A DNA stretch of 64,000 nucleotides, from contig JAFLKR010000041.1 of the NCBI GenBank assembly GCA_019163135.1, positions 6,741-70,740 of the forward strand, given 5' to 3'. Both the position numbers and the translations under genes were made by a program. Each line of letters begins with the position of its first letter. Position 1 is the stretch's first letter. The DNA comes from Desulfobulbaceae bacterium (GTDB lineage Bacteria; Desulfobacterota; Desulfobulbia; Desulfobulbales; Desulfobulbaceae). A model generated the notes under the pieces. It saw nothing but the letters and a program-made list of their open reading frames with translations. It was not told the DNA's origin and ran no database searches. This document shows, piece by piece, positions 5,450 to 43,529 of the stretch.

Positions 5450-7009
5450 CTACGCCGAAGGCTGCTGAGGCTTTTCGCCATTAATACAGAAAACCTGAAT
5501 CTTTTTCTCTACCCCCCGCAGTTGCATCTCGCCCATTTCCTTGATCGCAAACCAGCCGTCGATATCTTGCCGCACCACATCGGTAATGTAAATCCGGCAC
5601 GATGAACTCTCCGCCGCCAAACGTTGGGCGATATTGACCTCATTACCGATCACGGTATAATCCAGCCGCCGGGCCGAACCGATGTTGCCCAAAAATACCG
5701 TGCCGCAGGTTACGGCGATCCCCAGATCGACGCCTTGGAACTCCTCGTATCGAGTGCTCCATTGATCCCGCAAGGCGGTAAACTTTCTCTTGATAGCCCA
5801 CGCGGTTTGCACAGCGGCCAGGTTGGGTCGCTCCAGTTTGACGGGTGCTCCGAAAACCGCCAGGACCGCATCCCCCATGAACTTGTCGACCGTTCCCCTG
5901 TGCTGAAAAACCTCCTCGGTGAAAAACTGAAAAAATTCATTGAGGAACGCCCGGAGCGCCTGGAGATCAAGGTGCTGGACCAGACGCGTAAAATTTCGGA
6001 TATCGGCAAACAGAACAGTTACGTCCTTAATTTCCCCTAGTTCCATAAGGTCGGCATGCTGTGCCAGCAGCAACTCGGCGACTTCGGGCGCCACATATTG
6101 CTCAAACATCGTCCGCATCCGGGTGGTAGACGCCAGTTGATGCAGAGAACGCACATTCTCAAGGGCGGTCGCTGCTTGACTGCAGATAATGCTGAGCATC
6201 TCGTTGTCGGCATCGGAAAAGCGTTCATCGGTCTCTTTCTGACTGACATTGAGGACGCCGAGGATCAATTTCCTGATTTTCAAGGGAAAGCTGATGGCGG
6301 AAACGATATCCGGCTGCTGCAGCAAGGGCGAGAAAATCGAGTCTTCCTGATCTTCCTTGTTGAGGATGACCGGTTTGCCTTGCTGAAAGACCCAACCGGC
6401 AATCTTATCGCCGGGCTGCAGCCGGATCGATTGCACCAGAGCGGGATCCATGCCGCGGGCCGCGGCAATATGAAGGCAACCGTCTCGATCGTCATACAGC
6501 ATCACCGACGTACGGCCAGCACCGGTTTGCCGGTCCACCGCATCGAGCAATCGTTCTAAGATTTCTTCTTCGGTCGAAGCTGCCAGAAATTGCTCGCCCA
6601 GGCTGTACAAAGGTATGAGCGTCCGTAACCGGGTGTTTTCCTGTTGCAGCCGATAGCGCTCCAGCGCCTGATTAACCACCCGGGTGAGATAGGCTGGATT
6701 GAACGGCAATTCCACCAGACCGGAAAAACCAGCTTCCAGCGCACCATGGAGCAGACCATTATTGGTGGAGGCGGACAGTAGGACACCGGCGAGTCCGGGC
6801 TGCACCGCTCCAAGTTCGGCAAATGCTTGACTACCCTCAAAAATGGGAGAATCATCCACAATCAGAGCGAGACAGACGCGCTGGTTTTGACAGCAGAGGA
6901 CCGCCTCTGCCATGGCCCGGCAATGAATCACCTCCAACCGTGACAGGGCCGAGATAATGGCGGTAGCCTGAATAGCATCAGCGGTAAGCAGTAAAACAGA
7001 AGATTTCAT
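5450..7009 (-). CDS. Class III adenylate cyclase: degenerate receiver-like domain + GAF + cyclase
   Basis: VLFADIRNFT, VDKFMGDAV, DYTVIGNEVNIAQRL; central GAF-type segment (SVMLYD..GIAGWV-like IAGWVFQQGKP, FPLKIRKLILGVLNV). Confidence 0.85.
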   Translation of the reverse strand: MKSSVLLLTADAIQATAIISALSRLEVIHCRAMAEAVLCCQNQRVCLALIVDDSPIFEGSQAFAELGAVQPGLAGVLLSASTNNGLLHGALEAGFSGLVELPFNPAYLTRVVNQALERYRLQQENTRLRTLIPLYSLGEQFLAASTEEEILERLLDAVDRQTGAGRTSVMLYDDRDGCLHIAAARGMDPALVQSIRLQPGDKIAGWVFQQGKPVILNKEDQEDSIFSPLLQQPDIVSAISFPLKIRKLILGVLNVSQKETDERFSDADNEMLSIICSQAATALENVRSLHQLASTTRMRTMFEQYVAPEVAELLLAQHADLMELGEIKDVTVLFADIRNFTRLVQHLDLQALRAFLNEFFQFFTEEVFQHRGTVDKFMGDAVLAVFGAPVKLERPNLAAVQTAWAIKRKFTALRDQWSTRYEEFQGVDLGIAVTCGTVFLGNIGSARRLDYTVIGNEVNIAQRLAAESSSCRIYITDVVRQDIDGWFAIKEMGEMQLRGVEKKIQVFCINGEKPQQPSA

Positions 7010-7152
7010 TGCGACTCTCGTGCAGGGAATACCGTATTTTTCTTTTTGCATGGTACCATCATGCAACTGGCAAGGCAAGAAATAGGCACAAGGCCCGTCC
7101 GGAACGATCGCACTCGACTATCCATTTCCCTTCGCATCGGGTATAATCGCCT

Positions 7153-9569: not shown

Positions 9570-10490
9570 TCAGCAGCCGAAAGCTTTCTGCAGATTAGGA
9601 ATGGTTTGTTTTTTGCGGCTCATCATGCCGTCGATCCACATGGAGTTGTTGGTGAGCTTGCCACCAAAAGCAGCTTCAATCATGGCAGGATCATCGGAAA
9701 TAACCATCAGGTCGGTTCCTTCTTTGACAACATCGGTGAGCATCAGCAGCACGGAATGACGCTCGCTGCCCTTCTGCTCTTTCATGGCGTTATACAGAGC
9801 ATCGCGCATATCGGCAACCTGCTCGAGGGTGGCAAGCTCAAGCTGGCCAACGCCGACTTTTTTGCCTTTCATGTCGAAATCTTTGTAATCCCGGTGCAGC
9901 AGATCCATGGGAGGAACGCCGGCAACCGCACTCTTGGCCTTCAACATTTCCATGAAGATCTCATCGGTATTGGTAACACCGGCGATGGCGGCCAACTCTT
10001 TCACTGCTTTTTTATCGGCAGGAGTACAGGTGGGGGACTTGAAATTAACGGTATCGCTGAGGATTGCGGAAAGCATCAAACCGGCAACCTTGGGGGCGAC
10101 TGCCACGCCGTCCAGATCGTACATAATTTTAAGAACGGTACAGGTGCAGCCAACCGGTTGATTGAAGTAATAAATCGGTTGATTGGTGGTAACATCACCG
10201 ATTTTATGGTGATCAACGATAGCCACAACATCGTTGGAACCGAGATTGTCCGGAGCCTGCGCCAGGTCGCTATGATCAACCAGCGCAACTTTCTTGCCAG
10301 CAGCGTCGGTCATGATCTCAGGGGCGGCAAAACCAAAACGTTTGAGAACAGTCTCTGTTTCGGGATTCAGTTTTCCCTGCATAACGGGGATATAATCTTC
10401 CCCTTTGGCTTTCATCAATTCAGCAAAAGCAATTGCTGCGGTTACTGAATCGGTATCCGGACTTTTGTGACCAAAAACATAAACTGACAT
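9570..10490 (-). CDS. ppaC: Manganese-dependent inorganic pyrophosphatase (family II)
   Basis: GHKSPDTDS, LVDHS, IVDHH (DHH), PVGCTCT, ILSDT, SRKKQ. Confidence 0.95.
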   Translation of the reverse strand: MSVYVFGHKSPDTDSVTAAIAFAELMKAKGEDYIPVMQGKLNPETETVLKRFGFAAPEIMTDAAGKKVALVDHSDLAQAPDNLGSNDVVAIVDHHKIGDVTTNQPIYYFNQPVGCTCTVLKIMYDLDGVAVAPKVAGLMLSAILSDTVNFKSPTCTPADKKAVKELAAIAGVTNTDEIFMEMLKAKSAVAGVPPMDLLHRDYKDFDMKGKKVGVGQLELATLEQVADMRDALYNAMKEQKGSERHSVLLMLTDVVKEGTDLMVISDDPAMIEAAFGGKLTNNSMWIDGMMSRKKQTIPNLQKAFGC

Positions 10491-10591
10491 AGCGTAATAC
10501 CTCCCAAAACTTGATAAATGACACATCAAATATGTGCGCTTCTCTTCTATCCCAGGCCTGACGTCGACCAGAAACAATAAAATTGAAGGAC

Positions 10592-11435: not shown

Positions 11436-11811
11436 GTCTGCATTCTCCTTCTTGCTGTAGTTGATTTACCCGAGAGCGTATAGCTTAATGGCATTTTATA
11501 TTAATCATTTTAACGAAGATGGCAATATCCCGTCGTGCCTGCGCAATAAATTTCACCCGCAGACCTGCCGGCAACCAACTGTTCCCTGGCGACCTCCCTG
11601 GTGAAAGACGATTGTACTCGCCGGCGGTTTTTTCATCAAGCACCTTCCCTGAAAACCGGCTACTGTTAAACATAATTAAGACATCGATTGATGTGATATT
11701 CAATTCCAGACTGGACGCAAGATCTGGCAGTTGGGTTTGTTTATGCATGCTAAAATAAACCATCAACAGTGTAGCAACGCGGCACCAACTCAACTCGCAG
11801 AAAACAAAGAC

Positions 11812-12288
11812 ATGAAGAATAAAAGAGTCAACTCCCGAAACCCCGACCTTCCCTCCTTGGGAGATACGATGTCGGCTGTGTATTCTTCAAAAAATTGGAA
11901 GCAGCAATGGCGCTTGTTCCGCCTGTCCCAGGATTGGCCAGCAATCGTCGGCACCGAAATCGGACGCCTGACCTCACCAGCTTTCTTCCGTCAGGATGCA
12001 CTCTGGATTTTTGTCCAGGATTCTGCCTGGATGCAGCACATGCAATTTATCAAACTCGATTTGCTCAAAAGGCTTAACAAGGTTCTGGAGGAGCAACCGG
12101 TTACCGATATTCGCTGGTTGCTCCCGCCGGAAATACTGGCGAAGCCGAAACGACAGGTTAGCGAACCCCTACCGATTTCCCCCCAAGAAGAACAGACATT
12201 CCGTGCAATGACGGAGTCCGTCGCCAACCAGGAGTGCCGGGAAGCACTACATCGCCTCTGGCAAACCTTGGCTGACCACTCCAAATAA
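11812..12288 (+). CDS. DUF721 / DciA family replicative helicase loader-like protein
   Basis: QDWPAIVGTEIGRLTSP..LWIFVQDSAWMQHMQFIK pattern with C-terminal tail (LREAL-like CREALHRL). Confidence 0.75.
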   Translation: MKNKRVNSRNPDLPSLGDTMSAVYSSKNWKQQWRLFRLSQDWPAIVGTEIGRLTSPAFFRQDALWIFVQDSAWMQHMQFIKLDLLKRLNKVLEEQPVTDIRWLLPPEILAKPKRQVSEPLPISPQEEQTFRAMTESVANQECREALHRLWQTLADHSK

Positions 12289-12480: not shown

Positions 12481-14805
12481 ATGAATATCATCGAATTAAT
12501 TGGCAACACCCCGCTGGTTGAATTGCGTCGTCTCAATCCTTCCGCCGAATCCGTTCAACTCTTCGGCAAGCTCGAATCGCGCAATCCCGGCGGGTCTATC
12601 AAGGACCGGGTCGCCCTGTCCATGGTCGAGGCAGGGGAAAAAAGCGGCGAACTGACCCACGACAAAATCCTGCTGGAGGCTACCAGCGGCAATACCGGAA
12701 TCGGTATGGCTATGGTCTGCGCGGCCAAGCAGTACCGTTGCCAACTGATCATGCCGGAATCGGCCTCGATCGAGCGACGGTTGATCATGCAGGCCTACGG
12801 CGCGGAAATCATCCTGACCCCGGCCAAACGGGCCACCGACGGCGCCATCGAAAAAGCCTACGCCCTCGCTCGGGAGCACCCGGAGAGGTACTTCCTCGCT
12901 GATCAGTTCAACAATCCAGCTAACTGGCAGGCGCATTACAAATCCACCGCCCCTGAAATCTGGGCGCAGACCGGTGGCCGGGTCACCGATATCATCGTCA
13001 CTCTGGGAACCTCTGGAACAGCCATGGGTTTGTCCCGGTGGTTCCGGGATCATCACCCGGAGGTTCGGGTGATCGCGGTGGAACCCTATCTCGGCCATAA
13101 GATCCAGGGACTGAAAAACATGAAGGAGTCCTACAAGCCCGGTATTTTCGACAAGTCTCTGCCTTCTACCATCGTCAACGTGGCCGATGAGGATGCGTTT
13201 AGCACGGTCCGTCTTCTGGCGGCCGAAGAGGGCATTTTTGCCGGAATGAGCAGCGGGGCCGCGATTTTTGCCGCGATCGAAAGGGCGAAAGAGTTGTCCG
13301 AGGGCTGCATTGTCACCATCCTGCCCGATGGCGGTGAACGGTATCTGAGCACCTCGCTGTTCGTGAAGCGGGAAAAGACGCCGGAGAAAACTTCCCAGTT
13401 ACGGCTATTCAACACCATGTCCCGGAAAAAAGAGGTCTTCCGACCGATCAGTGAAAACCGCGTCACTCTCTATGCCTGCGGCCCCACTGCCTTTGAGCCG
13501 CCTAACCTCGCCCACTGCCGCCGGTTTATCGTCGCCGATCTCATCAAACGTTTTTTGCACCACTGCGGCTATGCGGTGGAATCGTACATGAATTTCACCG
13601 ACATCGACGACAATACTATTGCCGGGGCCATTGCGACCAACGCCAACCTGAAAGATTTCACCGGCAAATATATCGAGGAGTTCATGCATGCGGCCGAGAT
13701 CCTCAGCGTGGAAAAGGCGGCGGGCTACCCCCTGGCTTCCGAACACATCGGCGACATGATCGAAATCGCCCATGACCTGATACACAAAGGCTATGCCTAT
13801 GAAAAACACGGCTCAATTTATTTCGACATCTCCAAATTCAAGCAATACGGCCGGCTGTCCGGCATCGATCTGAGCAAGATCAAACTCGGCCAGACCGTGG
13901 ATCTTGACAATTACGAGAAAGATAATCCACGTGATTTCACCCTGCTCAAACGTTCCACCTTGGCAGAATTGAAAAAAGGCATCTTTTTTGAGACCGATTG
14001 GGGCAACATCCGGCCCGGCTGGCATATCGAGTGCTCGGCAATGTCCACCAAATACTTAGGCGAAACCATCGATATCCATACCGCCAGCCAGGACCTAGTC
14101 TTCCCACACCATGAAAACGAGATCGCCATTGCTGAGGCACTCACCGGTAAACCTCTTGCGAATTACTGGGTGCATTCCGGCCAACTGTTGAAGGATGGCC
14201 GCAAAATGGCGGATGCCACCGGAAATGTGGTGACCCTCAAAGAGGTGCTGGACAAGGGCTATGACGGCCGGGAACTCCGTTTCATGCTGATGGGCGTTCA
14301 TTACCGCAAGCCCCTGATTTTTTCCTACAAACGATTGAACAGCGCTCGGACGGCATTGAAAAGGATTGATGAATACACTCGCAAACTCCTCTGCCTACCC
14401 GCTGGCCTGCCCCATCCCGAGGTGACGGCTTCGTTGTCCGAGTTGGAAAAACAGTTCATTGATGCCATGAACGACGACCTCAATATCTCTGGGGCCATTG
14501 GGGCGCTTTTCAATTTTATCAAGCAGACCAACCCAATAGTGCAGTCAAGGAATCTTGATCGCGATCAAAAAAACGATATACTGGAAGTCCTGCGGATGAT
14601 CAATACGGTGCTTGGCATTCTCCGACTGGAGCATTGCCCCTTGACCCCGGAGATCGACCGACTCATCCGTCAACGCGAGCGGGCTAGGCAACTCAAGGAT
14701 TGGACGGCAGCGGATTCAGCTCGAGAAGAGTTGCTGAGCAAAGGAGTAACCATTCACGATACGGCGGTTGGACCAATCTGGGAACAAATCAAAGAAGGAG
14801 CGTAG
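12481..14805 (+). CDS. Fusion: PLP-dependent cysteine synthase (CysK/CysM family, ~aa 1-295) + cysteinyl-tRNA synthetase-like domain (~aa 310-774)
   Basis: NPGGSIKDR (PLP Lys), EATSGNTG, GTSGT, HKIQGLKN, PDGGERYLST; then CGPT, NFTDIDD, RPGWHIECSAM, DLVFPHHENE, DDLN, AR..KDW..AD..R; one uninterrupted ORF. Confidence 0.93.
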   Translation: MNIIELIGNTPLVELRRLNPSAESVQLFGKLESRNPGGSIKDRVALSMVEAGEKSGELTHDKILLEATSGNTGIGMAMVCAAKQYRCQLIMPESASIERRLIMQAYGAEIILTPAKRATDGAIEKAYALAREHPERYFLADQFNNPANWQAHYKSTAPEIWAQTGGRVTDIIVTLGTSGTAMGLSRWFRDHHPEVRVIAVEPYLGHKIQGLKNMKESYKPGIFDKSLPSTIVNVADEDAFSTVRLLAAEEGIFAGMSSGAAIFAAIERAKELSEGCIVTILPDGGERYLSTSLFVKREKTPEKTSQLRLFNTMSRKKEVFRPISENRVTLYACGPTAFEPPNLAHCRRFIVADLIKRFLHHCGYAVESYMNFTDIDDNTIAGAIATNANLKDFTGKYIEEFMHAAEILSVEKAAGYPLASEHIGDMIEIAHDLIHKGYAYEKHGSIYFDISKFKQYGRLSGIDLSKIKLGQTVDLDNYEKDNPRDFTLLKRSTLAELKKGIFFETDWGNIRPGWHIECSAMSTKYLGETIDIHTASQDLVFPHHENEIAIAEALTGKPLANYWVHSGQLLKDGRKMADATGNVVTLKEVLDKGYDGRELRFMLMGVHYRKPLIFSYKRLNSARTALKRIDEYTRKLLCLPAGLPHPEVTASLSELEKQFIDAMNDDLNISGAIGALFNFIKQTNPIVQSRNLDRDQKNDILEVLRMINTVLGILRLEHCPLTPEIDRLIRQRERARQLKDWTAADSAREELLSKGVTIHDTAVGPIWEQIKEGA

Positions 14806-14909: not shown

Positions 14910-14986
14910 GCGCCAGTAGCTCAGCTGGATAGAGCAACGGCCTTCTAAGCCGTAGGTCGGAGGTTCGAACCCTCCCTGGCGTACCA
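14910..14986 (+). tRNA. tRNA-Arg (anticodon UCU)
   Basis: 77 nt GCGCCAGTAGCTCAGCTGGATAGAGC...ACGGC-CTTCTAA-GCCGT...GGTTCGAACC...TGGCGTACCA; cloverleaf with TTC loop and encoded CCA. Confidence 0.97.
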
Positions 14987-14993
14987 CAATATT

Positions 14994-15027
14994 AAGCACT
15001 TAGCCATTCCAGGTTAGGTGCTTTTTT
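14994..15027 (+). terminator. Terminator-like hairpin directly after tRNA-Arg (also the likely islet border)
   Basis: AAGCACTTAGCC-ATTCCA-GGTTAGGTGCTT followed by TTTT. Confidence 0.7.
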
Positions 15028-15504
15028 CATTATCGCTAACCCAACGCAAACCACCAGCCAACCCTTTATGTCCATTAACGACCCCTTTAGGTCGCTTTGC
15101 CCGCTCCCGCCGGCAAAACTCGACGGGGTGGACGGGGGCTGTATTTTACAGGTTTTGCGCATGGGAAAAAACCTCATCGTGTTTCTTGTTATGTACAATC
15201 GAGTGTTTGCCATATTATTCAAACCAAAAATCACGGAAAAAGCCCGCCCTGTCTTAATCATTTTTTTACAGTAGATCGAATGGTTACCGTCCAGAGAATG
15301 GACACTAACTGGATGGCGGGACAGATGGAAGCTTGAAAAAAAATTACGCACTCTCCAAAGGGCATGTGGCATCATCACCCTGTTAGAGAAGGAAACCGAT
15401 CCGGTGACCAACGCCATTCAATAGATTTTATTGCCCAATTTTGAGAAAAAAATAGGGATTCCTCAAGGAATCCCTACAAATATAAAGACTTTATTTATTT
15501 TCAG

Positions 15505-15879
15505 TTAATATCCGCTACCTACAATAAGGTTATTGTTTGTTTTCTTAATATAGGTATTTTTCTCTTTTTCTTTCCATTCGTATTTAACCCAAGATCCTTG
15601 AGGAGTTGCACCCTTTATTGCTTCATAAATAGGCATGGCTTCAACTTTTAGATCCTTCCCTGCCAAAGTTGGATGAACAATGAGCTTCCCATCTGCTTCC
15701 AAGATGAATGCATATGGCGTGTAAGCATCCGGAGTAAAACTTGCAGCCACTTTACCACTGTTAATGGCAGCCACAACTTCATCCACATTTTTACTGATAG
15801 CCTCCTTGTCGGCACTAAAAGACGGGTTAGCAAAGAGAAAAACCGCGACCATGGAAAGCATTACCATTAAACATTTCAT
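15505..15879 (-). CDS. Small exported stand-alone single-Cache-like domain protein
   Basis: Signal peptide (..ANPSFS/ADK); YAFILEADGKLIVHPTLAGKDL...G.WVKYEW...K.TYIKK...IVGSGY resembles sCache_2; visibly AT-rich DNA. Confidence 0.65.
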   Translation of the reverse strand: MKCLMVMLSMVAVFLFANPSFSADKEAISKNVDEVVAAINSGKVAASFTPDAYTPYAFILEADGKLIVHPTLAGKDLKVEAMPIYEAIKGATPQGSWVKYEWKEKEKNTYIKKTNNNLIVGSGY

Positions 15880-17158: not shown

Positions 17159-17908
17159 TTAACGGGAAGGACGTCCACCCGCAATCGCGGCCTGGAGCAT
17201 TTTTACGATATTAGAGTTATTTGTTTTGACCGCACCGTCTAAAGCAGTAATACCTTCCTTATTTCGAATATCCAGCCTTGCGCCTTTATCGATCAGCAAG
17301 CGAACAATCCCCTCGTTGCCATTGGCCACCGCCACAATAATTGCAGTATTGCCGTTCTTGGTCTGAAGATCTAAGCCTGCTCGCTTTTTTATCAACAATC
17401 GAGCGATATCGGCTTTATCGTTGGCCACCGCCGCAATAAGGGCGGTATCGCCTGTTGTGTTCTGAATATTCACCTGAGCACCCTTGTCGATCATCATTTG
17501 AACGATATCGGCGCTGCCTATGGCCGCTGCAAAGATTAGGGCGGTATCACCATTGTTATTCTGAATATTCACCTGGGCTTTCTTTTTAATCAGCCTTTTG
17601 ACTATGTCGGTGTTGGCTTTGGCCGCCGCAAAGATTAGGGCAGTATCGCCATTGTTATTCTGAAGATCCACTTGGGCGCCTTTGTCGATCAACTTTCGGG
17701 CGATATCGGTGTCGCCTTTATCCAATGCCAAAATGAGAGGGGTATCGCCATCGGGACTCTGTGCGTTGATATCCTGACCCATGAAAGATTCCTGTGGGGC
17801 CACCTTTCCAGCCTTCCCAGCCTTCGATGAAGTTCGAGCGCAACCAGACCCAACCAGCAGAGCCAATATTGGCAGCAAGATTAAATAACGAATCGCTCTG
17901 TTTGTCAT
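17159..17908 (-). CDS. Ankyrin-repeat lipoprotein (about six ANK repeats)
   Basis: Lipobox LLVGSG-C; repeated GDTALIFAAA..N.DIV..L..KGAQVN.QNN.G units. Confidence 0.9.
   Translation of the reverse strand: MTNRAIRYLILLPILALLVGSGCARTSSKAGKAGKVAPQESFMGQDINAQSPDGDTPLILALDKGDTDIARKLIDKGAQVDLQNNNGDTALIFAAAKANTDIVKRLIKKKAQVNIQNNNGDTALIFAAAIGSADIVQMMIDKGAQVNIQNTTGDTALIAAVANDKADIARLLIKKRAGLDLQTKNGNTAIIVAVANGNEGIVRLLIDKGARLDIRNKEGITALDGAVKTNNSNIVKMLQAAIAGGRPSR
17290..17760 (-). repeat. Approximately 99-bp tandem DNA repeats encoding ankyrin units
   Basis: Recurrent gc(a/g)gtatc(g/a)ccattgttattctgaa...cac(c/t)tggg and cc(t/c)ttgtcgatca blocks at 99-nt spacing; boundaries approximate. Confidence 0.75.
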
Positions 17909-18260
17909 TTTACACCTCGTTACAGCAAAATTATTCTGAGTTTTCATCTACTATTAGAAGGCCGCAATGTGCCGGGTAGAAAGAACGCAATTTGACGAAT
18001 GGACACCGCGCCTGGAGAAGCATTCTCTTGGTACTATACCATTACTTGCCTGACAAATATTATCAAAAAAGAATTGTCGAAATCATCTAGCCCCGATTTT
18101 TTCTTTTTAAAAGCCAGGGAATTCTGGCCACTCGATGGTATTATCCTCCTTACCAGGGAGACAGGTACAAGTAAACGGAGCGTCACCACCCCAGCAACCC
18201 ATTAAGATAGTTAACAATTACTGCCCATCTCGCCTGTTGATCTCAACAAAGGGAATATTG

Positions 18261-38407: not shown

Positions 38408-39427
38408 ATGAAGTACGCCTTCCCTTTGGCGGCAGTAATTGCCCTGGTGTTGTTAGCGCTTATCCTGGTACAGATACCTGGTATGCAATACCTCTTTGGT
38501 GTTGCAATTCCATACCTGGCCATGGCGCTGTTTTTAGGTGGTTTTTGTTATCGGATAATCCATTGGGCTAAATCGCCGGTGCCTTTCAAAATTCCGACCA
38601 CCTGCGGCCAGGGCTACTCGTTGCCTTGGATCAAACACGATAAGCTGGAAGCCCCGGTTAACACCGCCCAGGTTGTTGCCAGGATGTTTCTGGAGATTTT
38701 CCTATTCCGCTCACTGTGGCGCAACACTAAGGCCACTGTGTATGATGGCCCGAAATTGACTTACGAGTCAAGCAAGTGGCTGTGGCTGTTCGGTATCCTT
38801 TTCCATTACAGCTTCCTGGTGGTTATAATTCGCCACATGCGGCTCTTCCTGGACCCGGTACCGTGGCCCGTTGCCTTCCTGGAAATGGGCGACTCTTTGC
38901 TACAGATCGGCGCTCCCACGATGTACACCACTGACGTCACCATAGTGTTAGGCCTGCTTTTTCTCTTCGGTCGTCGCCTGATGAATCCGCAAGTCCGCTA
39001 TATCTCACTGGCTAATGATTACTTCCCGCTCTTTCTCATCCTCGGGATTGTAACCACCGGTGTTTTAATGCGATTTTTCCTACGCACCAATGTCGATATC
39101 AACGCCATCAAACAGTTGGCTGTGGGTTTGGTGACGTTTCACCCGGTCATCGTGACCAAAATCAGTTCTTTATTTTATGTACATGTTTTCTTAGTATGCA
39201 TTCTGCTTGCGTATTTTCCTTTCAGCAAGCTCATGCACATGGGTGGTGTGTTCCTCAGCCCAACCAGAAACCTGGCCAACGATTCGAGAATGAAACGCCA
39301 TATCAATCCCTGGAATCCCGATATCAGACCGCATTCCTACGCTGGTTATGAGGATGAATTCCGTGCCGATATGGTTGAGCAGGGCATTCCCGTTGAGAAA
39401 GAGTTGCCGCCGCAGGCTAATGACTAA
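38408..39427 (+). CDS. dsrM: DsrMKJOP complex cytochrome b subunit
   Basis: SPVPFKIPTTCGQ, FHYSF..IRHMR, YFPFSKLMHMGGVFLSPTRN; first gene of the intact cluster. Confidence 0.96.
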   Translation: MKYAFPLAAVIALVLLALILVQIPGMQYLFGVAIPYLAMALFLGGFCYRIIHWAKSPVPFKIPTTCGQGYSLPWIKHDKLEAPVNTAQVVARMFLEIFLFRSLWRNTKATVYDGPKLTYESSKWLWLFGILFHYSFLVVIIRHMRLFLDPVPWPVAFLEMGDSLLQIGAPTMYTTDVTIVLGLLFLFGRRLMNPQVRYISLANDYFPLFLILGIVTTGVLMRFFLRTNVDINAIKQLAVGLVTFHPVIVTKISSLFYVHVFLVCILLAYFPFSKLMHMGGVFLSPTRNLANDSRMKRHINPWNPDIRPHSYAGYEDEFRADMVEQGIPVEKELPPQAND

Positions 39428-39460
39428 CGCTGGAAAATTCAAGAGTATAAGGATAGAGCA

Positions 39461-41092
39461 ATGGCAGTAGTAAAGGTAGATAAGTTGGCAAGGAGCGTTG
39501 CCGAGGGACCTTCGCTGATGACAGGCTCCATACCAACCAAAGATTGGATGGATGTACCTGTAGTATTCAAGCCTGGAAATTACGCCTACCCGACCAAGCC
39601 TGAAAAGCTTCGGTATCTGGATAGTCAGCAGGGAGTCAGCTTCCCCAATGCACGCGAATGGAATCCTGAGGATGAAGATTGGAAACTTCCAGATAATTGG
39701 AAGGAGATCATCATGCAGGGATTGGCGGATCGGCTTGATCGCTTCCGCTCACTGAAAATTTTCATGGATTGTTGTGTCCGCTGTGGAGCGTGTGCGGATA
39801 AATGCCACTTTTTCCTCGGCACCGGCGATCCTAAAAACATGCCGGTCCTGCGAGCTGAACTGCTTCGGTCGGTATATCGCCAGGATTTCACCCTTGCCGG
39901 TAAGATTCTCGGCAAGTTGGCCGGCGGTCGCGAGATGACCACAGGCGTCCTGAAAGAATGGTTCATGTACGCCTATCAGTGTACGGAATGCCGTCGTTGT
40001 TCGGTTTTCTGTCCCTACGGTATCGATACCGCCGAGATCACCATGATGTTGCGCGAATTGCTCCATCTAGTCGGTATCGGTATCAACTGGGCAATGGAAC
40101 CAGTCGCCAATTCCAACCGTACCGGTAACCACATGGGGCTCACGCCCCAGGCCTTCAAGGGTAATGTCGATTTTCTCTGCGAGGATATCGAAAACCTCAC
40201 TGGGGTCAAGGTTAACCCTACCTTTAATCGTAAAGGCGCTGAAGTGTTGTTCGTCACACCATCAGCAGACGTCTTCGCCGAGCCAGGTATTTTCACCTGC
40301 ATGGGCTACCTCCTCCTATTTGAGGCGATTGGCCTTGACTATACCTGGTCCACCTATGCCTCGGAAGGCGGCAACTTCGGCTTGTTCACCAACAACGAGA
40401 TGATGAAAAAGCTGAACGCCAAAATGTTTGCCGAATCCAAAAGGTTGGGCGTCAAATGGATTCTGGGCGGTGAATGCGGGCACATGTGGCGGGTTGTTCA
40501 TCAGTATATGGATACCATGAATGGACCTGCTGATTACCTTGAAGTTCCCCGGTCCCCGATCACCGGGACGGTCTTTGAAAATGCCAGAGCCACCAAGATG
40601 GTTCATATTTCGGAGTTCACCGCCGACCTGATCAAAAACGGCAAACTCAAGTTCGACAAAAGCCGCAACGCCCACATCAAGGCCACCTTCCATGATTCGT
40701 GCAATCCTGCCCGGGCAATGGGACTGTTGGAGGAGCCTCGATACATTCTCGACCATGTCGTCGATAATTGGGTGGAAATGCCGGAAAATACCATCCGCGA
40801 AAAAACGTTCTGCTGCGGATCCGGAACGGCACTTAATACCGATGAAATTATGGAACTTCGTATGCGGTCCGGTCTGCCTCGAGCGAATGCCGTGAAGCAT
40901 GTCCACGATAAGCACGGCGTCAACACGCTGGGCTGTGTATGCGCCATCGACCGAGCTACCTTAACAAGCCTCATGGATTACTGGGTACCTGGAGTTCAGG
41001 TGGCAGGCTTAAGCGAGCTTGTCGGTAACGCATTGGTGATTGAAGGTGAGCAACGACAAGAACTGACCGAAGGGCTCAGGACCTTGGTTTAA
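39461..41092 (+). CDS. dsrK: DsrMKJOP complex catalytic Fe-S/CCG subunit
   Basis: CVRCGACADKCH, CTECRRCSVFCP, GECGH, HDSCN, CCGSG, CAID. Confidence 0.97.
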   Translation: MAVVKVDKLARSVAEGPSLMTGSIPTKDWMDVPVVFKPGNYAYPTKPEKLRYLDSQQGVSFPNAREWNPEDEDWKLPDNWKEIIMQGLADRLDRFRSLKIFMDCCVRCGACADKCHFFLGTGDPKNMPVLRAELLRSVYRQDFTLAGKILGKLAGGREMTTGVLKEWFMYAYQCTECRRCSVFCPYGIDTAEITMMLRELLHLVGIGINWAMEPVANSNRTGNHMGLTPQAFKGNVDFLCEDIENLTGVKVNPTFNRKGAEVLFVTPSADVFAEPGIFTCMGYLLLFEAIGLDYTWSTYASEGGNFGLFTNNEMMKKLNAKMFAESKRLGVKWILGGECGHMWRVVHQYMDTMNGPADYLEVPRSPITGTVFENARATKMVHISEFTADLIKNGKLKFDKSRNAHIKATFHDSCNPARAMGLLEEPRYILDHVVDNWVEMPENTIREKTFCCGSGTALNTDEIMELRMRSGLPRANAVKHVHDKHGVNTLGCVCAIDRATLTSLMDYWVPGVQVAGLSELVGNALVIEGEQRQELTEGLRTLV

Positions 41093-41120
41093 TTTACCGG
41101 CAGGAATTGGAGGAATAGCA

Positions 41121-41492
41121 ATGTATGACAGTGGTAAAATAATCCCGGGACTGATCATTTTTGTCCTGTTTATCACGATACCCATCTGGTACAACCGCGG
41201 CACTGCTGCGTCCGTGCCCAAACCGGTTTTACCGAAAGACGCCAAGATGTGTGTCCTGCCGGCAGCGGAAATTCGCTCAGAGCATATGAAGTTATTGAAC
41301 ACTTGGCGTGATGAAGTTTTACGGACTGGGGATCGTGGTACTTTTGAGCTGGAAGGCAAAAAATACCAAAAAAGTCTGATGTTGACCTGTATGAAGTGCC
41401 ACACGAGTAAAAAGCAGTTCTGTGACACGTGCCACACGTATGCATCGGTTAAACCATATTGTTGGGATTGCCACATAGCTCCTGTTGAGTGA
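41121..41492 (+). CDS. dsrJ: Triheme cytochrome c subunit
   Basis: Three CxxCH motifs (CMKCH, CDTCH, CWDCH); CV..EHMKLLNTWRD. Confidence 0.96.
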   Translation: MYDSGKIIPGLIIFVLFITIPIWYNRGTAASVPKPVLPKDAKMCVLPAAEIRSEHMKLLNTWRDEVLRTGDRGTFELEGKKYQKSLMLTCMKCHTSKKQFCDTCHTYASVKPYCWDCHIAPVE

Positions 41493-41515
41493 ACGGCTAA
41501 GGAGGAGATATACAG

Positions 41516-42349
41516 ATGGACAAGAATAGAAGAAATTTCCTCAAGGTAGCCGGTATTTCAACACTGGCTGGCCTTGGTGGTACTGCGGTCGTTGATCGGT
41601 TGGTCGGCGGAACGAGCCTGGCGCAGGCCGCTGCTGATTCCGGCCATGATGTCGATCAGGCAAAAGGCGCGCAAGGACACGGAGAGATCCCAAGTTCGAG
41701 CGGCAATCGCTATGGCATGATCATTGATATTAAAAAATTTCAGCAAGATCCCAGTCTAGGCGAAAAGGCTGTACAGGCTTGTCATTCAGTTCACAACGTC
41801 CCTCAATTTCCTGATAAGAAAGATGAGATCAAATGGATTTGGATGACCAATTTTGAAAATGCCTTTCCGACCAGCAGCAACCCGTATCGAGATGAGGCTA
41901 CAGCAAAACATCAGCTCCCCATCCTTTGCAACCATTGCGATCAACCTCCTTGTGTCCGGGCCTGCCCCACCAAGGCGACCTTTAAGAATAAAGACGGCAT
42001 CATCATGATGGATTACCATCGCTGCATCGGTTGCCGCTTCTGCATGGCCGCCTGCCCCTATGGCAGCCGGAGTTTCAACTGGCGCGATCCTGAAGCGTTT
42101 GTCAAAAACGCCAATCATGTTTATCCGCGGAGAACGCGGGGTGTCGTTGAAAAGTGCAACTTTTGCGATGAGCGAGTAGGAGCCGGCAAGCAACCTGCCT
42201 GTGTCGAGGCTTGCGGAGAGAGCAAAGCAATTGTCTTTGGCAATCTCAACGATCCTGATTCCGAGATCAGAAAAATGCTGAAAGAAAATCATACGATTCA
42301 GCGTAATCCTGCACTCGGCACCATTCCTTCTGTCTTTTATATTGTATGA
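41516..42349 (+). CDS. dsrO: Tat-exported Fe-S subunit
   Basis: RRNFLK Tat motif; CNHCDQPPCVRACP, CIGCRFCMAACPY, KCNFC. Confidence 0.95.
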   Translation: MDKNRRNFLKVAGISTLAGLGGTAVVDRLVGGTSLAQAAADSGHDVDQAKGAQGHGEIPSSSGNRYGMIIDIKKFQQDPSLGEKAVQACHSVHNVPQFPDKKDEIKWIWMTNFENAFPTSSNPYRDEATAKHQLPILCNHCDQPPCVRACPTKATFKNKDGIIMMDYHRCIGCRFCMAACPYGSRSFNWRDPEAFVKNANHVYPRRTRGVVEKCNFCDERVGAGKQPACVEACGESKAIVFGNLNDPDSEIRKMLKENHTIQRNPALGTIPSVFYIV

Positions 42350-42356
42350 GGCCGCC

Positions 42357-43529
42357 ATGTTTGAAAAAGCATTAAAAGGAAACAATTATTACTGGATGTG
42401 GCTGGCCTTTCTCGGCTTTTTTATTGCCATAGCAGCTGTCTGTTATCTCAGGCAATATTTTTATGGACTGGGTCTCACCGGGATGAGCCGTGATGTATCC
42501 TGGGGACTCTACATTTCCCAATTCACCTTTCTGGTCGGCGTTGCCGCCGGAGGGGTTATGCTGGTTCTGCCGTATTATATCCATGATTACAAGGCATTTG
42601 GTCGCATCACCATTTTGGGTGAATTCCTTGCGATATCAGCCCTGCTCATGTGCCTGATGTTCATCATGGCCGATTTAGGGCAGCCCTTGCGCGGCCTGAA
42701 CGTCATGCTTTACCCCACACCGGGTTCCATGCTTTTCTGGGATATGTGCGTCCTCTGGGGTTACCTGATTCTGAACGCGCTCTGTGGTTGGGTGATTCTG
42801 ACAGCTGAACGCAAGGGTGTGCATCCACCGAAATGGATATACTTCTTCGTATATCTCTCCATTCCCTTTGCATTCTCGATCCACACGGTCACCGCGATGC
42901 TCTATTGCGGTCTTCCTGGACGCCACTTTTGGCTATCGGCTATCATTGCTCCCCGCTTCCTCGCATCCGCTTTTGCCGCCGGTCCTGCACTGATCGTGGT
43001 CATTGCTTTGATCCTGAAGCGGGTGGCTAACTTCGACGCCGGCAAGGAAGCGCTCAATAAAATGGTGACCATCATCATTTATGCGGCCTTGGCCAACATG
43101 TTTTTTGTCGGTCTGGAATTCTTTGTCGGTTTTTACTCCAACATTCCTGGCCACATGCATACCCTGCAGTACCTGTTCTTCGGCCTGGAGCATCATGGCC
43201 ATGTCTATAACAACCTGGTACCGTTCATGTGGGGCTTTATCGCCCTGTTCCTGGTCGGAATTTCCCTGCTTATCCATCCATATACCAGAAAGCAGAGCGA
43301 TCTCTGGCTGGGCATTGGCTGCGCTTCCATTTTCTTCGCCTTCTGGTTGGATAAAGGCATCGGCTTTGTGCTCGGCGGGTTTGTCCCGACCCCGACCGAA
43401 GAAATCGTTGAATACTATCCGACCATCAACGAACTGTTCATCACCATCGGTATCTGGGCCACCGGATTTTTCATCCTGACCGTCCTGTACAAGATTGCCA
43501 TCAGCGTGGAACACGAAATAGAAGCATAA
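42357..43529 (+). CDS. dsrP: NrfD/PsrC family membrane subunit
   Basis: GLTGMSRDVSWGLYISQFTF, DLGQP, HTVTAML, PRFLASAF. Confidence 0.95.
   Translation: MFEKALKGNNYYWMWLAFLGFFIAIAAVCYLRQYFYGLGLTGMSRDVSWGLYISQFTFLVGVAAGGVMLVLPYYIHDYKAFGRITILGEFLAISALLMCLMFIMADLGQPLRGLNVMLYPTPGSMLFWDMCVLWGYLILNALCGWVILTAERKGVHPPKWIYFFVYLSIPFAFSIHTVTAMLYCGLPGRHFWLSAIIAPRFLASAFAAGPALIVVIALILKRVANFDAGKEALNKMVTIIIYAALANMFFVGLEFFVGFYSNIPGHMHTLQYLFFGLEHHGHVYNNLVPFMWGFIALFLVGISLLIHPYTRKQSDLWLGIGCASIFFAFWLDKGIGFVLGGFVPTPTEEIVEYYPTINELFITIGIWATGFFILTVLYKIAISVEHEIEA

Follow-up and report, generated by a model that had tools for sequence, protein, structure and literature searches.

This analysis concerns a single fused gene at positions 12481..14805 (+) of a 64,000-nucleotide stretch from a Desulfobulbaceae bacterium (contig JAFLKR010000041.1, assembly GCA_019163135.1), hereafter the window. 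Its 774-residue product joins a CysM-type cysteine synthase, through a linker, to a domain derived from cysteinyl-tRNA synthetase (CysRS), and homologous fusions occur in other genomes. We tentatively favour the view that an active cysteine synthase is attached here to a pseudo-synthetase that would bind tRNA-Cys without charging it, most plausibly as a sensor or regulator. The changes in the ATP-activation motifs are fixed throughout the clade of the window protein, the site of the catalytic Lys269 (Escherichia coli CysRS numbering, used below for equivalent residues) is almost free to vary, and the cysteine pocket and the anticodon contacts are invariant; this combination favours lost or altered charging with retained binding. 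An earlier note, made from the sequence alone, had proposed that the domain lost or altered aminoacylation and still binds cysteine and/or tRNA-Cys. The comparative data favour this proposal, with the refinement that tRNA binding appears to be the more universal of the two properties.

Architecture of the fused protein

The open reading frame begins with ATG and runs uninterrupted through 774 codons to its stop. Pfam places PALP at residues 5-283 (E 1e-71), tRNA-synt_1e (PF01406) at residues 320-623 (E 5.5e-89), DALR_2 (PF09190) at residues 658-714 and CysS_C (PF23493) at residues 721-761, and the protein scores above the cut-offs of the NCBIfam models for cysS (TIGR00435, 400 bits, cut-off 340) and for the cysKM subfamily (TIGR01136, 358.9 bits, cut-off 344.15). 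Pfam, NCBIfam and the translation thus agree with the earlier description of one 774-residue frame in which an intact pyridoxal 5'-phosphate (PLP) cysteine synthase precedes a full-length CysRS fold. From N- to C-terminus, we distinguish a PLP-dependent O-acetylserine sulfhydrylase domain of the CysM/CysK type (residues 1-295, 12481..13365, +), a linker of 11 residues (296-306, 13366..13398, +), the CysRS-derived Rossmann catalytic domain with its CP insertion (307-623, 13399..14349, +), a helical region equivalent to the DALR_2 or stem-contact part, seen as helices in the structural model (624-715, 14350..14625, +), and the anticodon-binding C-terminal domain (716-774, 14626..14802, +).

AlphaFold2 models both halves confidently, with a mean pLDDT of 87.7. 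The pTM of 0.60 makes the mutual orientation of the domains unreliable, and we draw no conclusion about inter-domain geometry. In Foldseek comparisons, the CysM half matches E. coli CysM (2bhs) with a TM-score of 0.94 and 46% identity, and the other half matches the CysRS structures 8qhp (TM-score 0.93), 1u0b, which contains tRNA (TM-score 0.81), and 1li5, with the fold and domain order of CysRS.

Conservation was followed in 120 close homologues of at least 82% identity, with a non-redundant subset of 34 sequences for site variability. The linker has a pLDDT below 50 at residues 296-304 and is predicted to be disordered, its mean entropy in the non-redundant subset is 1.64 bits with zero invariant sites, and its amino acid identity to the Desulfobulbus propionicus orthologue is 0.36, which makes it the only region free of constraint in that pair.

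We find the fusion in over 120 clusters of sequences with identities of at least 82%, drawn from NCBI, JGI, ENA and Logan assemblies and including finished genomes such as that of D. propionicus DSM 2032 (CP002364.1), whose protein is 85% identical to that of the window. An identical protein is found on an independent 28.9-kb JGI contig, which contributes no additional sequence. Assembly or sequencing error and strain-specific drift, which the earlier note had named as possible refutations, are therefore ruled out by the recurrence of both the architecture and the substitutions across independent assemblies, and we give them a negligible probability.

The catalytic residues of the cysteine synthase are all present, namely the PLP lysine K41 (nt 12601-12603), TSGNTG (residues 68-73), GTSGT (residues 176-180) and S257, and none of K41, T68-G73, G176-T180 and S257 varies in 50 sequences that represent two orders. 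In the reading that we favour, this half is an active cysteine synthase of the CysM type. The narrower CysM equivalog model TIGR01138 gives 356.1 bits, below its cut-off of 394.2; since TIGR01136 is passed and TIGR01138 is not, the domain is CysM-like and cannot be assigned as a strict equivalog.

Degenerate ATP-activation motifs

The motifs of the CysRS-like half were read from HMMER alignments to E. coli CysRS (1li5) and to 8qhp. At the HIGH position we find NLAH (residues 342-345, 13504..13515, +), in which the first His is replaced by Asn and the Gly that is invariant in class I synthetases by Ala. HGGG (E. coli 224-227) is replaced by HTAS (residues 533-536, 14077..14088, +), and the KMSKS loop reads KMADA (residues 575-579, 14203..14217, +), with site 578 equivalent to Lys269. 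Direct translation of nt 13504-13515 and nt 14203-14217 returns NLAH and KMADA, and the three replacements listed in the earlier note are confirmed. The alignment adds a fourth, KIIK to NTIA (residues 378-381, 13612..13623, +), within DDKIIK to DDNTIA (residues 376-381). The HGGG motif is distinct from the one that carries Zn ligands, as H234 and E238 sit in FPHHENE, which is intact in the window protein.

The earlier note had also suggested following these changes through homologous fusions. Among the 120 close homologues, the HIGH position reads N[LI]AH nearly throughout, with a few HLAH, HTASQDL takes the place of the nucleotide-binding glycines of HGGG.DL in 120/120, and the KIIK position reads NTI[ATS]. 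HTAS and NTI are invariant in the non-redundant subset. The NLAH-type and HTAS changes are thus clade-wide, which excludes strain-specific drift as their origin, and it is the residues after K-M-A that vary: instead of the expected K-S, we observe GD, SD, DA, GE, KE, EA, DE or AD. Site 578 shows seven residue types in the 34 non-redundant sequences and ranks 22nd of 774 in variability, within the top 3%, and the site of the second KIIK lysine ranks 21st of 774. A position among the most variable of the protein does not behave as a catalytic residue.

Conserved cysteine pocket and anticodon-binding domain

All four ligands of the Zn site, which holds the cysteine thiolate, are kept, as the earlier note had stated: C333 (C28 in E. 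coli, 13477..13479), C518 (C209, nt 14032-14034), H543 (H234, nt 14107-14109) and E547 (E238, nt 14119-14121), all on the + strand. Together with W514 (W205), they are invariant in the 34 non-redundant sequences. The same holds for the arginine and aspartate residues of the C-terminal domain, where the pattern R..AR..KDW..AD..R reported earlier is found as R732, A735, R736, K739, D740, W741, D745 and R748, followed by a further conserved residue, D760. R736, W741, D745 and R748 correspond to R427, W432, D436 and R439, which contact the anticodon in the E. coli CysRS-tRNA-Cys structure 1U0B, with R427 bonding G34 (PMC13449415). The window protein therefore has the CysRS domain set (Rossmann, DALR_2 and anticodon domains), the Zn ligands with the W205 equivalent, and the contacts for the GCA anticodon, and it has no HIGH motif of the form H-[IL]-G-[HN], no second lysine of KMSKS and no HGGG.DL glycines.

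An additional region of interest lies in the CP domain, where the clade-specific motif GQTVDLDNYEKDNPRDFTLLKR (residues 470-491, 13888..13953, +) replaces the canonical ...DEY.K....DF.LWK. In the form G-x-TVDL-x-Y-x-K-x-NP-x-DFTLLKR, this motif is invariant from Desulfobulbales to Desulfovibrionales.

Relative to the orthologue of D. propionicus, the CysM half has a dN of 0.076, the Rossmann/CP part one of 0.099 and the anticodon domain one of 0.058. The corresponding dN/dS values are 0.073 for CysM, 0.07 for the Rossmann domain and 0.047 for the whole CysRS-like part; since dS is saturated in this pair (>1), they should be read as about 0.05-0.07 in both halves. Within the clade, 56% of the sites of the CysRS-derived catalytic part are invariant. 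As a whole, the CysRS-like domain is under purifying selection as strong as that on CysM and is not decaying.

A series from canonical to fully decayed fusions

To sample the wider family, representatives at 50% identity were searched exhaustively, species-representative genomes were scanned, and the Desulfovibrio ferrophilus protein served as the query of a further search. The fusion is found in Desulfobulbales (Desulfobulbus, Ca. D. rimicarensis, Desulfocapsa, Desulfopila), in several unclassified Desulfobacterota metagenome-assembled genomes (MAGs), and in many cultured Desulfovibrionales, including D. ferrophilus, Desulfocurvus, Desulfobaculum, Maridesulfovibrio hydrothermalis, M. zosterae, D. 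inopinatus, Salidesulfovibrio onnuriiensis, Desulfoplanes, Desulfocurvibacter africanus and Humidesulfovibrio.

These proteins can be arranged by the state of their motifs. Canonical motifs (HIGN / HxGG / KMSKS) are present in L009, from a Pseudobdellovibrionaceae MAG, and P0124, from a Nanoarchaeota MAG. Intermediate forms (HxG[LNT] / KMSRS or KMARS) comprise P0121, P0280 and L008 (all three with KMSRS) as well as the standalone proteins P0135 (KMARS) and P0136. The Desulfobulbales, with the window protein, show [NH]L[AS][HL] / KM[AS]xx. In L007, L010, L011, L015 and P0122 the KMSKS loop is gone, and in the fully decayed Desulfovibrionales forms C28, C209, E238, HIGH and KMSKS are all replaced.

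In a bootstrapped neighbour-joining tree of the CysRS domains (463 columns), whose deep nodes are weakly supported, all of the intermediate and degenerate forms fall into one clade (bootstrap 81%), with L009 as a weakly supported neighbour, and motif loss is seen on three or more separate branches. P0124 is placed among ordinary CysRS of the HIGN type, and its fusion may have originated independently. L009 combines canonical motifs with the CP motif, which places the origin of the latter before the decay of the ATP motifs, and its state is likely to be ancestral, judging from the alignment and the tree. Among the matches listed, the closest relatives without a fusion are CysRS of the HIGN type, from Bathyarchaeia, Acidobacteria, Nitrospirales and Chlamydiae, and not the proteobacterial HIGH type.

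As a reference for residue retention, we used 96 columns conserved in 14 canonical CysRS and examined them in 25 intermediate or degenerate proteins. Residues of the catalytic part are mostly lost (K269 kept in 2/25, G226 in 4/25, W194 in 2/25, and W184, G201 and Q241 each in 0/25), and other residues are mostly or always kept: N351 in 21/25, R423 in 25/25, R427 in 23/25, D436 in 25/25, R439 in 24/25 and D451 in 25/25. In the 49 Desulfovibrionales proteins that lack the Zn site, R423, R427, D436, R439 and D451 are each present in 49/49, the residue at W432 is always aromatic, and the CysM residues K41, TSGNTG, GTSGT and S257 are all invariant. As judged from these residues, the common denominator of the family is an active cysteine synthase with a module in which recognition of the tRNA-Cys anticodon is apparently retained. 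The CysM residues and the anticodon contacts are fixed across all stages of decay, and the cysteine/Zn pocket is an extra that the lineage of the window has kept. Moreover, the sister lineages without the loop and the Zn site retain the fusion, which indicates that selection on the fusion is independent of charging.

Several related proteins were encountered in these searches. L009 (L009:192-2429) and P0124 are CysM-CysRS fusions with canonical ATP motifs, presumably bifunctional, in hosts with small genomes. P0178 and about 100 relatives are CysE-CysRS fusions of about 710 residues, in which a serine acetyltransferase with hexapeptide repeats is joined to a CysRS with canonical HIGH, KIIK, HGGG and KMSKS; their hosts are Nitrospirota (Thermodesulfovibrionales, Dissulfurispira thermophila), and they represent a second way of joining cysteine biosynthesis to CysRS. 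P0135, P0136 (a 58-member cluster) and P0146 are standalone CysRS-like proteins of about 460-485 residues without CysM, carrying HIG[LTS] with KMSRS, KMARS or KITAE; P0135 and P0136 lie inside the degenerate clade and P0146 on an adjacent branch. P0133 (761 residues) is a normal CysM-CysRS-like protein over its first ~380 residues, the remainder being a low-complexity sequence rich in Arg, Gly and Ala; a frameshift or a chimera in the gene call, in an assembly of high GC content, is the most likely cause.

Search for a second CysRS

In the 64-kb window, tblastn with the CysRS and CysM halves matched only the fused gene itself. A canonical CysRS probe against 13 fusion-bearing loci matched only the fused genes, and the flanks of 15 such loci contain no other CysRS. 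No canonical Desulfobacterota CysRS is among the matches listed in the scan of species-representative genomes, where D. propionicus is not among the listed genomes, and when the canonical CysRS portion of P0178 was used as a protein query, the search reached Nitrospirota and no canonical CysRS of Desulfobulbaceae. The Desulfovibrionales form, devoid of Zn ligands, would be unable to select cysteine, which implies that another enzyme forms Cys-tRNA in those organisms. For the clade of the window, we infer from the phylogeny and the relaxed constraint that a separate CysRS coexists with the fusion.

Proposed function and alternative explanations

In the mechanism that we propose, the CysRS-like half would not activate cysteine with ATP, the Gly and first His of HIGH, the GG of HGGG and the second Lys of KMSKS being gone, and the pseudo-synthetase would bind tRNA-Cys through the residues that recognize the GCA anticodon, in all lineages. 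In Desulfobulbaceae, the Zn site would also bind cysteine or the cysteinyl end of Cys-tRNA. The ligand state would then be reported to the attached CysM, so that cysteine synthesis would be tuned to translational demand. Such a protein would descend from a truly bifunctional CysM-CysRS fusion. With a separate canonical CysRS presumably present as well, its synthetase half was no longer needed and would have decayed independently in several Desulfobacterota lineages. Loss of charging and binding of tRNA-Cys are both suggested by the residue comparisons, and a regulatory role by analogy with other pseudo-synthetases (see below); since the CysRS half is covalently joined to CysM, a sensor of the tRNA-Cys state is the most economical role.

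A number of observations weigh against this proposal, and several of them would fit an enzyme that is still bifunctional, in which the CysRS half charges tRNA-Cys by means of non-canonical motifs, being either the sole CysRS of the cell or a second one, and freshly made cysteine is channelled to the tRNA. K575 (K266), H345 (the fourth HIGH position), H533 and D538 are invariant in the clade of the window together with the whole cysteine pocket, including all Zn ligands and W514, a pattern that would fit adenylation chemistry in a residual or altered form. The TIGR00435 score of 400 bits is still above the cysS equivalog cut-off of 340. Class I synthetases accept some motif variation, examples being HIGN, TIGN and the absence of KMSKS from some ArgRS, and fusions of the same architecture with canonical motifs exist (L009, P0124). 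No second canonical cysS, nor SepRS/SepCysS, turned up for D. propionicus or the organism of the window in the window, the fusion-bearing loci and the genome matches listed; if the genome holds none of these, the fused protein must charge tRNA-Cys. Besides, no clue to regulation or to a pathway comes from the gene neighbourhoods, and the inter-domain geometry is unreliable (pTM 0.60). We nevertheless regard a charging enzyme as unlikely, because the invariant Gly of HIGH is Ala, the GG of HGGG is AS, the K269 site is among the most variable, and sister lineages without the loop and the Zn site are still fused. 

A similarly improbable explanation is tRNA-dependent chemistry, in which docked tRNA-Cys, through a Ser, phosphoserine or O-acetylserine-like 3' end or through a nucleotide, would be the substrate or nucleophile of the PLP enzyme, in a SepCysS-like route or a new tRNA modification. 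CysM-type enzymes take bulky or macromolecular nucleophiles, such as thiosulfate and, in Mycobacterium tuberculosis, the CysO thiocarboxylate. The anticodon contacts stay fixed also in proteins that have lost the cysteine pocket, an invariant clade-specific motif lies in the CP domain, which adjoins the acceptor arm in CysRS, and some bacteria have tRNA-dependent cysteine synthesis (PMC5424206). However, no SepRS, SepCysS, sulfur-carrier or modification genes lie near any of the 15 loci, such a reaction has no known precedent, and the model gives no reliable inter-domain geometry. CysK and CysM also bind their substrate at its free α-carboxylate, a group that forms the ester bond in an aminoacyl-tRNA. 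A more specific version, which we consider quite unlikely, is that the pseudo-CysRS serves as a docking platform on which the PLP enzyme would make Cys on tRNA, independently of SepCysS, or add an alanyl- or cysteine-derived modification, with the CP motif as acceptor-arm guide. The CysRS-like half could, in turn, be a structural relic needed only for the folding, solubility or oligomerisation of CysM and without a role in ligand binding. The repeated decay of catalytic motifs agrees with such a relic, as does the finding of neither a functional partner nor a regulatory context at the examined loci. We hold it to be very unlikely, as its dN/dS is equal to that of CysM, standalone members without CysM persist (P0135, P0136 and, on the adjacent branch, P0146), and a scaffold role does not explain why the surface base contacts equivalent to R427, D436, R439 and D451 are kept in 49/49 proteins of the most decayed subfamily. 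A cysteine persulfide synthase would suit a sulfide-rich cell, as the window encodes the dsrMKJOP of a sulfate reducer and the Zn/cysteine pocket is kept. This moonlighting activity of CysRS is independent of ATP and tRNA and requires K73, K76, K266 and K269 in E. coli CysRS (PMC5660078). The equivalent residues are N378, A381, K575 and D578, so that three of the four lysines are lost, two of them at hypervariable sites, and the invariance of the anticodon contacts would be left unexplained. We therefore reject this identity as highly improbable.

Relation to known systems

For the sensor that we favour, the closest functional analogy is HisZ, a HisRS paralogue and regulatory subunit of HisG, which is derived from an aminoacyl-tRNA synthetase, has lost adenylation and controls the biosynthetic enzyme of its cognate amino acid (PMC9437257). 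The window protein shares with it a synthetase origin, lost motifs and the coupling to the cognate biosynthetic enzyme. There is no sequence relationship. HisZ is a class II protein acting as a separate subunit and has no anticodon-binding domain, whereas the window protein belongs to class I, is fused, and has its anticodon contacts as the most conserved part. Another pseudo-synthetase fused to an effector enzyme is the HisRS-like domain of GCN2, which binds uncharged tRNA and thereby regulates that enzyme. GCN2 is eukaryotic, acts through a protein kinase and binds many tRNAs, in contrast to the GCA-anticodon-specific contacts and the metabolic effector of the window protein. In the control of cysteine genes by T-boxes in Firmicutes, the charging state of tRNA-Cys is the signal of cysteine supply. 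A T-box is, however, an RNA leader that acts on transcription, and an Rfam scan found no T-box, riboswitch or other leader upstream of the fused gene, its only hits being the downstream tRNA-Arg gene and a sub-threshold match to the L20 leader.

With canonical CysRS (TIGR00435; 1li5, 1u0b, 8qhp), the window protein shares the fold, domain order, Zn ligands, W205 and anticodon contacts; it differs in its degenerate HIGH, HGGG, KIIK and KMSKS, in clade-specific replacements of W184, G201 and Q241, and in the N-terminal CysM. The canonical-motif CysM-CysRS proteins (L009, P0124) and the CysE-CysRS family of P0178 follow the same idea of joining, and L009 has the CP motif in common with the window protein. 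Unlike the latter, they keep HIGN or HIGH, HxGG and KMSKS and are presumably real synthetases.

A 2022 review of synthetase paralogues lists for CysRS only MshC and CysRS*, both active ATP-dependent ligases without an anticodon domain (PMC9437257). Both are derived from CysRS, and CysRS* also occurs in Desulfobacterota; the window protein shows the reverse pattern, with the motifs lost and the anticodon domain kept. MshC was rejected as an identity, given a TIGR03447 score of 193 bits against a cut-off of 485, the intact HIGH and KMSKS expected of it, and the presence of the anticodon domain. CysRS*, which charges SelC* in Desulfobacterales, was rejected since the anticodon domain is present and conserved and the neighbours are dciA, a Bax1-I family gene and tRNA-Arg rather than selC* or selB*.

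Full-text literature searches gave no account of a fusion between cysteine synthase and CysRS, nor of any CysRS paralogue that is degenerate and yet keeps its anticodon domain. From its residue conservation, the fusion looks like an undescribed and widely conserved tRNA-binding module on a metabolic enzyme. Dead synthetases acting as sensors of amino acids or tRNA are known from few systems only (HisZ, GCN2), and the window protein, if our proposal is true, would be the first tRNA-specific pseudo-synthetase found directly on a metabolic enzyme in bacteria. For sulfate reducers living at millimolar sulfide concentrations, this would tie cysteine synthesis to the state of tRNA-Cys. The small chance that tRNA is a substrate would, if realised, amount to something categorically new. 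The family spans Desulfobulbales, Desulfovibrionales and other Desulfobacterota, with culturable species included, and its series from intact to decayed forms with fixed tRNA-reading residues is suited to dissecting the change from synthetase to sensor. Public annotations name its members 'cysteine synthase' or 'cysteine--tRNA ligase' interchangeably, so cysS counts and the metabolic reconstructions derived from them may be wrong in these genomes.

Genomic context

A dciA-like gene lies directly upstream of the fusion (11731..12288, +). This synteny is conserved in Desulfobulbales, being found in the window, D. propionicus, Ca. D. rimicarensis and Desulfocapsa, and the gene is probably not functionally linked to the fusion. 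Downstream, 105 nt past the stop codon and on the same strand, a tRNA-Arg(TCT) gene (14910..14986, +) is followed by a terminator-like hairpin (14994-15023) and is possibly co-transcribed with the fusion. D. propionicus lacks this arrangement with tRNA-Arg and has a Bac_transf gene directly after the fusion.

The neighbours are housekeeping genes, which in the window are dciA, the Bax1-I family gene, a Mn-pyrophosphatase gene and mgsA. In other lineages they are tmk and surE, glycogen synthase, or an MptE-like gene with PAP2. No cys, sulfur-carrier, SepRS, SepCysS or tRNA-modification genes are found nearby in the 15 loci. In M. hydrothermalis (L084:8038-9801) and S. onnuriiensis (L085:8094-9863), the decayed fusion divergently adjoins the MptE-like gene (PF01973, ~588 residues), which is followed by PAP2 and, in L085, also by a PMT-type gene (PF02366); the matching L084 gene has no Pfam match.

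The pyrophosphatase-like gene, of the Mn-dependent inorganic family II (DHH-DHHA2), is located two genes upstream of the fusion (9570-10577, -). Near it are a GAF-adenylate/guanylate cyclase gene (5450-7078, -) and a gene for an ankyrin-repeat protein with a lipoprotein-like N-terminus (17159-17947, -). A weak match to the ribosomal protein L20 leader at 15440-15552 (-), with 29.5 bits against a gathering score of 58.7 and an E-value of 0.006, overlaps the start of a small Cache-like open reading frame and a terminator-like hairpin and is probably due to chance. The rest of the window is an ordinary Desulfobulbaceae chromosome, with dsrMKJOP, fusA, hisA, aroA, acnB and pyrD. In the dsrMKJOP operon (38408-43529, +), DsrM, DsrK and DsrP score above their NCBIfam cut-offs, which identifies the organism as a dissimilatory sulfate or sulfite reducer.

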